Shown: in pieces, positions 26,691 through 57,993 of the stretch
Numbering within the stretch: position 1 is the stretch's first letter
How the letters are laid out: each line of letters starts with the position of its first letter
Assembly: GCA_963755915.1 (NCBI GenBank)
Contig: CAVWLP010000003.1
Location: forward strand, 1,088,001 to 1,152,000
Direction of reading: 5' to 3'
DNA from: an uncultured Phycisphaerales bacterium
GTDB lineage: Bacteria > Planctomycetota > Phycisphaerae > Tepidisphaerales > Tepidisphaeraceae
DNA: 64,000 nt
The notes under the pieces: generated by a model
What the model was told of the DNA's origin: nothing
The model's database searches: none
The model's input: only the letters and a program-made list of their open reading frames with translations
Translations under genes and position numbers: made by a program

Positions 26691-27878
26691 ATGAAGTTGG
26701 TTCTGGCCGGGGCTTTTCTTATTGCCGGGGCGGTCCTTTCCGGGTGCGCATCGGCGCCGGTTGCCGTGGTCTCGGCGCCGCAGCGGTTGGACGCACGTCC
26801 CTCGATCCCAATTGCCGAATTCCAGGGGACGCCTGCTGAGATCGGCAGCGAGCACGGGACGCGATTTCGATCGCAGATCGGCGAGCTTCACGACAAGTAT
26901 CTGCTGGTTGAGCTCCAGGGCCAGAGCCTGGTGCAGGCAAGGCTGGCGGCGGCAAGCTTCGAGATTTTTATGCCGCCCGATGACCGGGCGGAAATTGAGG
27001 GTTTGGCGCAGGGGTCGGGGCTAAATGTCTATGACGCGGTCCTCGCGCAGTGTTTCCTCGATCTGATGCCGGTGGCGGGGTGCTCGACGATTTCATTGCC
27101 GGCGTCGGCGTCGCCGGACGGGGTGGCGCGGTTTGGGCGGAACCTGGACTTCGATTCCCTGAATGTGCTGGATAAGAATTCGGTTTTGATCGTTTATCAC
27201 CCGAGGAGGAAGTATCAGTTCGCGACGATTGGATGGCCGGGGATGATCGGGGCGGTTTCGGGGATGAATGAATATGGGCTGTGCCTGGCGAACATGGAAG
27301 TGCCGCGCGGGTTTCGGCCGCCGATGGCGATGCCATATACGCTGCTTTATCGGGAGATATTGGAGCGGTGCCGGACAGTGAAGGAGGCAATCGATCTGCT
27401 CAATCGCGAGCCGCGGCAGACGGCGAATAATCTGATGCTGATGGACGCCGCCGGCAATCGCGCGGTGGCGGAGATTCGGCCGGAAGCGGTGACGGTGCGA
27501 TGGGGCCAGGCAGACGCGGCGCTGATCAGCACCAACCATCAGCGCGGGCTCGATACGGCGACGCCGGGATTTTGCTGGCGGTATGACTCGCTCCATGCGG
27601 AATCGGGGCCGGAGATGGGGCATATTGATTTGCCGCACCTGGAGAGGATGCTTGGTGGTGTTGTTCAGGGGGAGGGGGGAAGCATGACGATTGAGTCGAT
27701 GGTGTTTGAGCCGGCAAACCGTGTGGTTTATCTGGCTACGGGGGCGAATGCACCGGCGAATGGGTATGGGAGGATCGATCTTAAGAGTTATTTCCGCGCG
27801 GCGGGCGGCGCTCGGCCAATCTGCCTGAAGGCAGGTGATGATTTCCACATCTTTTGCACCGGTATATGTGGCGCGTAA
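26691..27878 (+). CDS. C45-family Ntn-hydrolase lipoprotein
   Basis: Lipobox LSGC; nucleophile CSTI, GRNLDF, SGMNEYGL, TNH. Confidence 0.85.
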   Translation: MKLVLAGAFLIAGAVLSGCASAPVAVVSAPQRLDARPSIPIAEFQGTPAEIGSEHGTRFRSQIGELHDKYLLVELQGQSLVQARLAAASFEIFMPPDDRAEIEGLAQGSGLNVYDAVLAQCFLDLMPVAGCSTISLPASASPDGVARFGRNLDFDSLNVLDKNSVLIVYHPRRKYQFATIGWPGMIGAVSGMNEYGLCLANMEVPRGFRPPMAMPYTLLYREILERCRTVKEAIDLLNREPRQTANNLMLMDAAGNRAVAEIRPEAVTVRWGQADAALISTNHQRGLDTATPGFCWRYDSLHAESGPEMGHIDLPHLERMLGGVVQGEGGSMTIESMVFEPANRVVYLATGANAPANGYGRIDLKSYFRAAGGARPICLKAGDDFHIFCTGICGA

Positions 27879-27944
27879 GTTGTTTTTTGAACTGCGCTTA
27901 GACGTTGGTCGCAAAATCCGATATGAAGCGGTGCAAATTCGCCC

Positions 27945-27972
27945 TTGCTTTTTGGTCGGATACCGTTAATAT
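27945..27972 (+). promoter_or_regulatory. Candidate sigma70 promoter for intergenic sRNA
   Basis: TTGCTT-16nt-TAATAT pointing into the hairpin array. Confidence 0.5.
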
Positions 27973-27978
27973 CTTAAG

Positions 27979-28141
27979 AGCGTATCGGGCGTTGAGCCGC
28001 CGATGCGGTTGGAAAAGAAAAGAGCGTTTGGGGGAAGGGGTCCCAAACGATTTACAATCCTCAACCGTCCAAGCACCCCCTTGGACGACCTCCCTTCCTA
28101 AAGGGAGTTACGCCCCGGATCCCCCCGTCCGGGGCCTTTTT
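27979..28141 (+). ncRNA. Candidate five-hairpin small RNA with C-rich loops
   Basis: Five consecutive stems; the last is followed by a T-tract; lies between convergent genes. Confidence 0.65.
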
Positions 28142-28272
28142 ATGCGCCGAGCGGGGAGAGAGTTGAGGGGAATGCGGAGACACGGCGAGCCGTTCGGCGA
28201 CGCTCACGGCGAGCAAGCCCGCCGGCTACACGCGCGGGATGCGGAAATCAGATTTTTATTTGATCGCGGGTG

Positions 28273-30288
28273 CTATTTGTGTGACGGTGACGGCGCCGGG
28301 GCTTCGCTGAAATTCCAATAGCGTTTCATCTGGACGATCGCGGAATCCTGGCCGCCGGATCGCTTGTCGGAGTTTTCGAGCCACTGGGCGGCTTGTCCGA
28401 GATGGTGGGAATTGTAATAGACGTAGGTTAGCAGGAACGAGTGGAGGGTGTCGTCGGGGGCATCCTGGGAAATCTGCTTCAAATCGGTAATCAGAGATTT
28501 GAGGCGATCGGCGCCGAGATGCTTCTGAAGGTCGTACTGTCCGAGGAGAACGGCGGGGTCCTGAGCGACGGCGACGTGAATGTCGGCGTTGGCCTGGGCG
28601 TAATAGCCGCCGCCAAGCTCCGCGGTGGCGCGGGCCATGAGAATCAGTGGATTGTTGGGGGCGGCGTCGATGGCCTCGTTGTAATTGGTAATGGCTTTGT
28701 CGTAGCGCTGGCTCTGGACGTTTTGCTCGGCGGTGCCGATCAGGTCGGCCAAACCCTTGGACCTGATTCCGTTGGCATAGCTGTCGATTGGAATGGGGGC
28801 CGGGGAGGCGGGCGGGGCAGTCAGGGGCGCCGGCCCGCCAAGATTGGTCGGGAGCTTGCTGAAATCGGGAGCGGCTCTATTGGGTTCAGCCTGGCTTGGT
28901 ACGGCTTCCTGTGGCGATCCGCCGTTGGCGTTGTTTTGATCGGGACTTGGAATACCGCTGGGCAGACCACCCGGCAACTGCGTGGGGGCGGCTGTCTTTC
29001 CGGCGAGAACATCGGCGCCGCTCTCGGCGTTGGTTTGCGCCAATTGCTGAAGGCGGCGAATCTCCTGGAACTTGCGGTTGGCCTGTTCGTCGGTCATGGA
29101 ATGCGAGCTGTCATAATCCTCCATGTTTTGACGCAGCTTGGCGTACAAGGCGCTCTGCTGCGTGGGGGGTGGGAGGCTCGCGTCGCTGGGCAAATACGTG
29201 CGATTCGACTGATCGGTGGAAACGTCCCCGGCCGCGGGGGTGAGACTGGAGGACTGCAACTGCGAGTTATTTGAGTTCACATCGGTAAGCGGCTGATTGA
29301 AGCTCGAGGTTTGGCTGCCGGGCTGCAACGGCTGAAGCAGGGAGGCTCCGGAGCCATTTGCAATGCTGCCAGTTGTGCCACTTTGTGCGGAGTTGGCGGC
29401 GGAGGGGATTGGATTCTGCAGCGTGAGTTCCTGGCGAATCTGACGAATGCGCGCCTGGACCGGCATGGGTCCGACGGAGGTGGAACTTCCCTGCGTCTGG
29501 TTGGGACCGAAGACGGAGGATTGCTGGTTTGCCTGGCTGTTGTTGGGATTGTAAAGGTTTTGACCGCTGTTTTGCGTGAGTTGGGAGTTGTCGGTGTTGA
29601 GCTGGACGGTTCCCCAAAGGGCGGAGCCGGAGAGCAACTGCTGAGCGCTTTCGGAGGGATTTACGCTGGAATCCACAGGGCCCGGAACGACGATCTGATC
29701 GGGCTTGGGTAGAACCTGGGTCTGTCCACTGAAGTCGATGGTGCCCAGACGCACGTCCTGAGGGGACTGGGCGAGGGGCTGCTGAAGCGTGAATCCGGGG
29801 GTTCCGGAAGTCGCCGCGGTTCCGTTTAAGCTGGTGTCGGGCGGGGCCTGGATGTGATTCGACAAGCCGTAATAAATCTGCGAAGGCGAAGAGCCCTGGG
29901 CATAGTTGCCGGAGGAGGCCGTTGGGTTGGCCATGGTGGGGACGCCAGTGGAGTTTGCGATGAACTGGTCGACTCCCTGTCCCGGGATAAGTCCGCGGAA
30001 GGCGAAGGGATCGGTGTACCCTACGCCAAGGTTAACGCCGTCAATTTCCGGGCCGCGGAAAGAATAGCCGTTGCGGGCGTTGCCGGTCGCGATGGCATTG
30101 TTGTACTGCGTCCAGCTCTGGACGGTGTTTGCAGGGTTATTGAACCCCCCGCTGCCGACCTGGGGGTTGGCGTCCATGGCCTGACCATTGGTGTTGACGC
30201 GCATCTGGCCGATTGCCGGAGCGGCGGCGAAAGCGGCGCCGCCCAGCGCCGCGAGCATTACGACATACGAGCGTTTACCACACTTCAT
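28273..30288 (-). CDS. Secreted low-complexity (Q/S/P/N-rich) protein with C-terminal TPR repeats
   Basis: Signal peptide; RYDKAITNYNEAIDAAPNNPLILMARATAELGGGYY TPR. Confidence 0.8.
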   Translation of the reverse strand: MKCGKRSYVVMLAALGGAAFAAAPAIGQMRVNTNGQAMDANPQVGSGGFNNPANTVQSWTQYNNAIATGNARNGYSFRGPEIDGVNLGVGYTDPFAFRGLIPGQGVDQFIANSTGVPTMANPTASSGNYAQGSSPSQIYYGLSNHIQAPPDTSLNGTAATSGTPGFTLQQPLAQSPQDVRLGTIDFSGQTQVLPKPDQIVVPGPVDSSVNPSESAQQLLSGSALWGTVQLNTDNSQLTQNSGQNLYNPNNSQANQQSSVFGPNQTQGSSTSVGPMPVQARIRQIRQELTLQNPIPSAANSAQSGTTGSIANGSGASLLQPLQPGSQTSSFNQPLTDVNSNNSQLQSSSLTPAAGDVSTDQSNRTYLPSDASLPPPTQQSALYAKLRQNMEDYDSSHSMTDEQANRKFQEIRRLQQLAQTNAESGADVLAGKTAAPTQLPGGLPSGIPSPDQNNANGGSPQEAVPSQAEPNRAAPDFSKLPTNLGGPAPLTAPPASPAPIPIDSYANGIRSKGLADLIGTAEQNVQSQRYDKAITNYNEAIDAAPNNPLILMARATAELGGGYYAQANADIHVAVAQDPAVLLGQYDLQKHLGADRLKSLITDLKQISQDAPDDTLHSFLLTYVYYNSHHLGQAAQWLENSDKRSGGQDSAIVQMKRYWNFSEAPAPSPSHK

Positions 30289-57919: not shown

Positions 57920-57993
<74 letters not shown>

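Follow-up and report, generated by a model that had tools for sequence, protein, structure and literature searches.

We have analysed a 64,000 nt stretch of DNA from an uncultured Phycisphaerales bacterium (assembly GCA_963755915.1, contig CAVWLP010000003.1, positions 1,088,001-1,152,000 of the forward strand), here called the window, and within it a small RNA gene, about 165 nt long, that lies between two convergent protein-coding genes. A preliminary description, made from the letters alone, had placed a five-hairpin RNA with C-rich loops in this position and proposed that it acts in trans on Shine-Dalgarno (SD) sequences. We find it to be a genuine small RNA gene of soil planctomycetes, transcribed separately from its neighbours, whose last three hairpins present C-runs and have been kept family-wide; it is probably a regulator of a familiar kind. 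It constitutes a new family within a known kind of RNA, has no Rfam counterpart, and comes from a phylum with hardly any described small RNAs. To our knowledge almost no regulatory RNAs are known in the Planctomycetota, and a survey of titles and abstract openings in the literature on small RNAs of Planctomycetes, Phycisphaerae or Tepidisphaera found no description of this one. The window's own genome, G000, comprises 6.6 Mb in three contigs with a GC content of 59%, and is 81% complete. Its family is Tepidisphaeraceae in public records, and the order holds no second family. The comparisons that follow used 141 genomes of the family, in 76 genera, and 130 genomes of the class outside it. The features of the locus are as follows, where R1 denotes a covariance model of the conserved core that was made from 15 sequences with a hand-drawn three-hairpin structure.

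26691-27878, + strand: upstream gene for a C45-family autoproteolytic acyltransferase/hydrolase (Pfam AAT 1.2e-22; NCBIfam C45_proenzyme 8.9e-54)
27945-27972, + strand: promoter-like site, with −35 TTGCTT at 27945-27950, a 16-nt spacer and −10 TAATAT at 27967-27972 (sequence and conservation)
27981-28007, + strand: 5′ hairpin 1, lineage-specific, common only to the nearest relative, L010 (RNAfold)
28025-28049, + strand: 5′ hairpin 2, stem 28025-28032/28042-28049, CGUUUGGG/CCCAAACG, with a G-rich loop (RNAfold)
28057-28144, + strand: conserved 88-nt core, comprising the 5′ single strand AUCCUCAACC, three hairpins and a U-tract (R1 score 109.6 bits)
28066-28087, + strand: core hairpin 1, stem 28066-28073/28080-28087, loop CACCCC (covariation in 8/8 pairs)
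28088-28107, + strand: linker AC and core hairpin 2 (CUCCCUU/AAGGGAG), stem 28090-28096/28101-28107, loop CCUA (covariation in 7/7 pairs)
28112-28141, + strand: terminator hairpin, stem 28112-28119/28128-28135, loop TCCCCCCG (RNA UCCCCCCG), then C and TTTTT at 28137-28141 (terminator scan; covariation in 8/8 pairs)
28273-30288, − strand: downstream convergent gene for a protein rich in Q, N and S, with a hydrophobic stretch at its N-terminus and a TPR region at its C-terminus

Folding of 27979-28144 on the + strand with RNAfold gave exactly these five hairpins, as earlier proposed together with the T-tract, at −71.0 kcal/mol (z −3.56, with none of 200 shuffled sequences as stable). Transcription would start near 27979, as judged from the position of the −10 hexamer. 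When 27975-28145 was folded the + strand had z −3.37 (1/200 shuffles) and the − strand was less distinctive (z −1.96, 8/200). It is conservation and covariation, rather than the energy of the fold, that place the structure beyond chance. The hairpin at 28112-28135 with its tail on the + strand is the sole site found by a terminator scan of 27500-28600, and this is not significant by itself, since shuffled sequences average 1.4 sites. The TTGCTT-16-TAATAT of the preliminary description is present in the sequence; it was not called in a generic promoter scan because TTGCTT matches only three of the six bases of the −35 hexamer, so that the claim of a promoter is founded instead on its conservation (below). 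Amongst 392 strict terminator-like hairpins of G000, five have CCCC in the loop and only this RNA has CCCCC, i.e. within G000 the C-loop terminator is peculiar to this RNA.

The three hairpins of the core are firmly supported by comparison. In an alignment of 58 members to R1, comprising 56 distinct sequences, compensatory changes occur in all 23 base pairs and 92.1% of the cells are paired, a level reached by none of 500 shuffles. This alignment is fitted to R1, which favours the structure. A MAFFT alignment of 15 sequences was made independently; here 7/23 pairs have changes on both sides, which again none of 500 shuffles attained. When the 3′ partner was slid by 1-3 columns the fraction of paired cells fell to 34-54%. 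Because the independent alignment agrees, and given the slid controls, we consider the three hairpins safe. Pairing is complete in the terminator hairpin (100% of cells), 93% in core hairpin 1 and 82% in hairpin 2, which is the weakest helix. In 23 of the 56 cores the minimum-energy fold is an alternative one, in which CUCUCAAC at the 5′ side pairs with GUUGAGAG around hairpin 1. The most constant feature of the aligned cores is the C-runs outside the stems. CCCC is found in loop 1 in 54/56 sequences and in the terminator loop in 52/56, and YCCC is found in the linker or 5′ arm of helix 2 in 52/56, so that the C-rich loops of the preliminary description are indeed the best-conserved unpaired parts. 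The stems vary while the C-runs of the loops are held, and this is the pattern expected of recognition sites.

A BLAST search against 40 relatives found 28059-28147 to be 94-100% identical in 11 of the genus's 12 genomes, and likewise in certain other genera; only in the nearest relatives could the 5′ part of the RNA be aligned. R1 matches 72 of the 141 family genomes, in 41 of the 76 genera (30/72 among the better assemblies). In five of the 72 (G024, G071, G087, G095 and G096) there are only weak matches, with best E values from 1.8e-6 to 6.2e-4. Most genomes have a single match and the maximum is four; the element is single-copy in G000, and it is thus not a multicopy repeat there. In G005, the only congeneric genome to give no match, the contig ends 80 nt past the stop codon of the TPR gene, just where the RNA would be expected, so this is an assembly gap and not an empty site. 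Matches in the family below about 31 bits (L153 and L157-L160) look like ordinary terminators following genes and were set aside, and in L144 (28.5 bits) the first hairpin differs from that of the core. Three of the loci used, L021, L028 and L031, belong to genome G014, which is flagged as unpublished. The core stretches of L021 and L028 are identical to the public records L070 and L075, L031 appears to match L044 of the same public assembly, and none of the conclusions rests on G014 alone. Of the 49 stretches returned by a pattern scan of the genome collection, 20 hold the full core, the other 29 being chance matches from other phyla; viral contigs gave no match to the core pattern. The public records of the core are labelled as metagenome-assembled genomes of Tepidisphaeraceae, Tepidisphaerales, Phycisphaerales or Planctomycetota, and one as Planctomycetaceae.

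Outside the family R1 matched 11 of the 130 genomes from other families of the class, all of them weakly (25-41 bits). Amongst these L128, L121 and L122 (genomes G251 and G221, family f18) are stretches of about 72 nt with two hairpins having C-rich loops, scoring 33-41 bits. They have a CCGUCCA...UGGACGG hairpin followed by a terminator with the loop UCCACCCCG, and may represent the core in a reduced form beyond the family.

While all five hairpins fold in the window, the five-hairpin unit of the preliminary description is conserved only in its last three members; hairpins 1 and 2 differ within the genus. L010 is 96% identical to the window across positions 1-208 of the query, and the region of 5′ hairpin 1 differs in the other congeneric species. 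Look-alikes of 5′ hairpin 2 are present in L010-L014 and L016, and absent from L015, L017-L020 and L027. It had also been suggested that the G-rich loop of this hairpin pairs with the RNA's own C-rich loops as a switch. The comparison does not support such self-pairing: the hairpin exists in only part of the genus, and in L011 its loop is GUAGUGCUUU, i.e. G-richness is not required even where the hairpin is kept. A sequence lying 3′ of the terminator, GUUGAGGG at 28160-28167, could pair with the 5′ CCUCAAC; it is absent from L010 and is taken to be chance. Two open reading frames run across the RNA, one of 138 aa (27905-28321, +) and one of 51 aa (28061-28216, −). A coding role was rejected on indirect grounds, since the length of the core ranges over 84-95 nt among members in one-base steps and the core is without ATG.

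The RNA appears to have its own transcription unit. In the 300 nt upstream a promoter-like sequence TTG[AC]nn-N16-18-TAnWWT is present on the sense strand in 33/55 loci and on the antisense strand in 1/55, and CCCTTGCwTTT...GCTAATAT is aligned in 11/18 loci of a genus-level alignment. The distance from the end of the −10 to the core is about 84-99 nt in the window's genus and about 120-180 nt in most other genera. In the short extra copies L146, L149 and L028/L031 a promoter-like −10 directly precedes the core, and these would give RNAs of about 90 nt. The gene upstream varies; over 31 loci it is C45 in seven, NuoC in three, an ABC ATPase in three, and various others in the rest.

Evidence at the RNA level comes from public sequence libraries. 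Part of the stretch is held by 17 runs recorded as RNA (24 rows, 20 studies), mostly with a share that fits the core alone; the runs that match are labelled as soil, rhizosphere, wetland and peat metagenomes. In all four RNA runs examined, from four studies, assembled contigs cover 27986-28147, and none was found in these runs on 27800-27985 or 28242-28300, i.e. the end of the C45 gene, the promoter and the end of the TPR gene. This missing cover of the flanks is a weak hint, as Logan contigs are interrupted where strains vary and do not retain rare variants. One of the RNA contigs comes from a near relative with 96% identical upstream DNA, which would have matched if present. We take these contigs to show that the RNA gene and the spacer downstream of it, and not the flanking gene ends, are present in RNA libraries, which is less than a mapped transcript. 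Taken with conservation and covariation, this supports an independent small RNA gene of about 165 nt with its own promoter-like site and intrinsic terminator, as the preliminary description had it. The spacer that separates the RNA from the TPR gene contains a direct repeat, CACGGCGAGC occurring twice at 28181-28214. Separate RNA-library contigs from two runs show about 90-94% identity to 28182-28232 and are unlike the window to either side of it.

The RNA corresponds to no family of Rfam 15. At gathering thresholds the whole window gives only a tRNA at 57920-57993, and 15 loci with long-form relatives (below) give tRNA only. The best of the sub-threshold resemblances are to RF02837 anti-hemB, at 30.7 bits against a gathering threshold of 49.5 (E 2.7e-5 in a search of 551 nt; alignment 28064-28143), and to RF02278, a betaproteobacterial toxic small RNA, at 24.3 bits against 50 (alignment 28083-28142). 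Both of these have two or three hairpins with C/U-rich loops and a GC-rich terminator at the end; however, the match is mostly to a generic terminator and C-rich loop composition, and they come from an unrelated phylum. None of the seven Rfam matches with E up to 10 was to LhrC or to any Firmicute family.

Long forms, in which the core follows additional conserved parts that are missing from the window, are found in most other genera. Examples are L101:1589-1740 (−), L129, L130 and L119, and their additional parts are:

5′ hairpin with a loop of the CGAGGG/CGAUGA type
small hairpin GAGCC-N5-GGCUC, whose 3′ arm doubles as the 5′ arm of a terminator-like hairpin (GCUCCG...CGGAGC) followed by U7
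M3, a 59-nt nested hairpin with a C7 loop

The small hairpin and the terminator-like hairpin that shares its arm look like a choice between antiterminator and terminator placed before the C-loop modules. The window's genus is without this mutually exclusive pair, and has the core with lineage-specific 5′ hairpins. We defined a second covariance model, R2, for the 59-nt M3 hairpin. It has compensatory changes in 5/16 pairs with 99.7% of cells paired, and matches 113 of the 141 family genomes, in 63 of the 76 genera, with 1-7 copies each. In two genera that lack the core, M3 and a plain terminator stand downstream of the same TPR gene; the upstream gene there resembles nuoC, its last residues being similar to open reading frames that contain NuoC. 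Both modules thus present C-runs on stable stems, and lineages retain different combinations of them. Could 5′ hairpin 2 of the window be a decayed M3? A search with R2 over 28019-28056, filters off and allowing E values of up to 10, returned nothing, and this idea was rejected. The copies of M3 in G000 itself are:

C3:47538-47593 (L161:1503-1558, −)
C3:515971-516027 (L162:1495-1553, −)
C2:2327401-2327458

One of these copies has a promoter-like site and a U-tail and may be a separate RNA of about 65 nt, and another follows the apparent 3′ end of a tRNA gene.

A mobile element with ends that resemble the first third of the core was also found. The window's genus contains a palindromic miniature inverted-repeat transposable element (MITE) of about 118 nt, with inverted ends of about 40 nt, GACCTCAACCGTCC...CTTGTCCGACCTCCC. 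These ends resemble positions 3-41 of the core, sharing the 11 invariant bases CTCAACCGTCC as well as GACCTCCC. Counting both strands and both ends, BLAST matches number 21 in G002, 36 in G012 and four, at two places, in G000; from the listed coordinates there are roughly at least 10 elements in each of G002 and G012. Examples are:

L032:771-888
L029:1499-1617
L030:1499-1669
G000:C2:4390679-4390720
G000:C2:4138225-4138267

The closest functional parallel is with LhrC of Listeria monocytogenes. That RNA presents CUCCC or UCCC at three sites, namely loop A, the inter-hairpin stretch and the loop of the terminator, each of which can bind a G-rich site upstream of the lapB start codon (PMC4132741). 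Its authors group LhrC there with the UCCC-motif RNAs RNAIII, RsaE, SprD and FsrA, and describe the class as typical of low-GC bacteria (PMC4132741). Like LhrC1-5 as there described, the RNA of the window has its own promoter and terminator, three redundant C-rich motifs in corresponding places, and sibling copies (here 1-4 matches per genome). There is no sequence relationship, however; the phylum is different and the genome here is GC-rich, the motif is CCCC(C) where LhrC has CUCCC...UUUU, and the window RNA has an additional middle hairpin. A broader likeness is to RsaE/RoxS, RNAIII and SprD, in which C-rich loops or single strands serve as seeds against SD regions. The window RNA is not homologous to RNAs of the RsaE/RoxS type by the Rfam search, and belongs to a Planctomycetota genome of 59% GC. 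Of the features of the UCCC-type class it has its own transcription unit, with a promoter-like site and terminator, and at least two conserved C-rich motifs in loops or single strands. The greater constancy of loops than of stems also has a parallel, as the seeds of RsaE/RoxS-type RNAs are more conserved than their stems.

The reading we favour, tentatively and at a little under even chances, is that of a trans-acting RNA, about 165 nt long and with a promoter and terminator to itself, that pairs through redundant C-rich seeds with G-rich sites in mRNA. It is preferred because the three redundant C-rich motifs are placed as they are in LhrC. In this model the RNA (27979-28141, +) would be transcribed from its own sigma-70-type promoter and end at its own intrinsic terminator. 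The working part would be the 88-nt 3′ core, in which three stable hairpins would expose C-rich motifs that are unpaired or half-exposed, namely CACCCC of loop 1, ACCUCCC at the foot of hairpin 2 and UCCCCCC of the terminator loop. One or more of these seeds might then pair with G-rich stretches of mRNA, either ribosome-binding sites of the GGGA/GGAGG type or other G-runs, and so change the translation or stability of the target, as with the UCCC-motif RNAs of Firmicutes. The 5′ hairpins would be exchangeable, lineage-specific additions. The anti-SD action of the preliminary description is plausible. With rough gene calls (5161 open reading frames kept, 5094 with starts), AGGAG, GGAGG, AAGGA and GGGAG are enriched in G000 at −15 to −6, giving an SD profile, and the 3′ end of its 16S RNA is ...CACCUCCUUUCU (more fully ...GGAUCACCUCCUUUCU). 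An anti-SD-like ACCUCCC sits in the region of the 5′ arm of core hairpin 2. We also note that the region of helix 2 (28088-28107, ACCUCCCUUCCUAAAGGGA) resembles the end of the 16S gene of G000 together with the first bases of the spacer, ACCUCCUUUCUAAGGGA; this may be chance, as beyond ACCUCC it is restricted to the window's genus.

Several results weigh against this model. No enrichment of GGGGG, which would pair perfectly with the C-runs, is seen at the ribosome-binding sites of G000 as placed by the rough starts. In a crude test with the same starts, four accessible segments were not predicted to pair more strongly with 4318 start regions (−35 to +15) than with windows taken from inside the same genes. 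At or below −16 kcal/mol, loop 1 gave 112 duplexes in start regions and 155 in intragenic windows, the linker and helix 2 gave 246 and 247, and loop 3 gave 604 and 829. Helix 2 also half hides the CCUCC-like stretch. In a genome of 59% GC G-rich sites are common everywhere, which places the specificity of pairing in doubt. Hfq was not found in G000 (81% complete), leaving an Hfq-type mechanism without support. Two of the RNA contigs extend 95-108 nt beyond the terminator, and assembled contigs carry neither strand, true ends nor level. Lastly, several hairpins that repeat one loop motif in varying number may equally have the look of a protein sponge.

That repeated-module architecture makes a protein-titrating decoy a serious rival, in which the C-run loops would bind a C-preferring protein of the KH or cold-shock type, or Rho. 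We judge it unlikely, at perhaps half the standing of the pairing model. CsrB and RsmZ are decoys of this kind for CsrA. As in CsrB, RsmY and RsmZ, a stable hairpin with the same loop motif is repeated and the number of units varies by lineage, with three C-motifs here and M3 added in the long forms. M3 also occurs alone 1-7 times per genome in the 113 genomes, and some genera keep M3 with a plain terminator at the same locus. That loops are more constant than stems would suit a binding protein too, as would the lack of enrichment in the scan of start regions. Yet no candidate protein has been identified, and three sites are few. Moreover the only bacterial sponge system of which we know requires GGA in its loops, whereas those of the core are CACCCC, CCUA and UCCCCCCG, so that the several loop GGA motifs of a CsrA sponge were not found; GGA occurs in the core hairpins only in paired positions, despite three matches to CsrA in G000. 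A wider scheme, which we regard as rather improbable, would be a modular C-loop RNA system of the Tepidisphaeraceae. Core and M3, both of which present runs of 5-7 C, would be combined, split or duplicated between genera, with the attenuator-like pair in the long forms, jointly titrating one C-binding protein or G-rich RNA, and the first third of the core would be exchanged with the ends of the MITE. Given such exchange, transcripts bearing the MITE would be complementary to the RNA and would join its network.

Other explanations look to the surroundings of the gene. The RNA might be a cis-antisense partner of the convergent TPR gene, where pairing of the complementary RNAs would control the 3′ end or stability of the mRNA. 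The TPR-protein cluster is the commonest neighbour, lying tail-to-tail with the RNA in 17/31 loci of at least eight genera, whatever gene is upstream. Between the TPR stop at 28273 and the RNA the − strand has no terminator and no notable structure (z 0.38), and without a terminator of its own the transcript of that gene would enter the RNA gene; the contigs that run 95-108 nt past the RNA terminator likewise reach into the spacer. But a different gene lies downstream in 14/31 loci, there are additional copies elsewhere in the same genomes, and antisense pairing needs neither conserved C-run loops nor covarying stems. The protein is present in 134/141 family genomes vs 72/141 for the core; at that frequency its phylogenetic profile is uninformative, and the kept synteny may reflect mere descent. 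We therefore think a cis-antisense role improbable. The TPR orthologue at G006:C5:392564-394303 has five in-frame TGA codons, and is either a broken gene or the result of errors in a 59%-complete long-contig assembly. Least credible of all is that the RNA is the 3′ untranslated region or terminator cluster of the C45 gene and not a separate gene. It does lie 67 nt downstream of that gene, on the same strand, and the same gene family is upstream in 7/31 loci; against this, the upstream gene is different in 24/31, the promoter-like site is conserved, and the RNA contigs reach no further upstream than 27986 in all four runs examined.

Scarcely more probable is that the RNA is a relic or domesticated piece of the MITE with no regulatory role of its own. 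To the resemblance between the ends of the MITE and the first third of the core can be added the pairing of CUCUCAAC with GUUGAGAG in 23/56 cores, as the MITE ends would pair, and the frequent ending of contigs at the RNA in fragmented assemblies, as happens at repeats. However, G000 has one full copy of the RNA, all other matches being no longer than 20 nt with E of at least 0.28, and 1-4 model matches per genome are not many dispersed copies. No terminal inverted repeats bound 27945-28141. The sole inverted pair, at 27839/28238, has one arm inside the C45 coding region; this 13-nt pair with one mismatch (TGATTTCCACATC at 27839-27851 and GATGCGGAAATCA at 28238-28250) flanks the intergenic region and is probably chance. 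The RNA is found in 41 genera and the MITE was seen in the window's genus only, with no match amongst viral contigs. A conserved promoter, terminator and synteny, the 23/23 covarying pairs and the RNA contigs are likewise not what a relic would be expected to have. Compared with bacterial MITEs of the Correia/RUP type, the likeness is thus that of the inverted ends to the first third of the core, whereas the RNA gene occurs once in G000, is bounded by neither inverted ends nor target duplications, and carries a promoter and terminator together with covarying stems.

An RNA with such clean comparative support is an entry point to post-transcriptional control in an abundant and mostly uncultured soil lineage, and the models R1 and R2 could become families in the style of Rfam. 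If the model of trans pairing through C-rich seeds is true, the C-rich multi-seed design of low-GC Gram-positive bacteria would have arisen independently in a GC-rich phylum.

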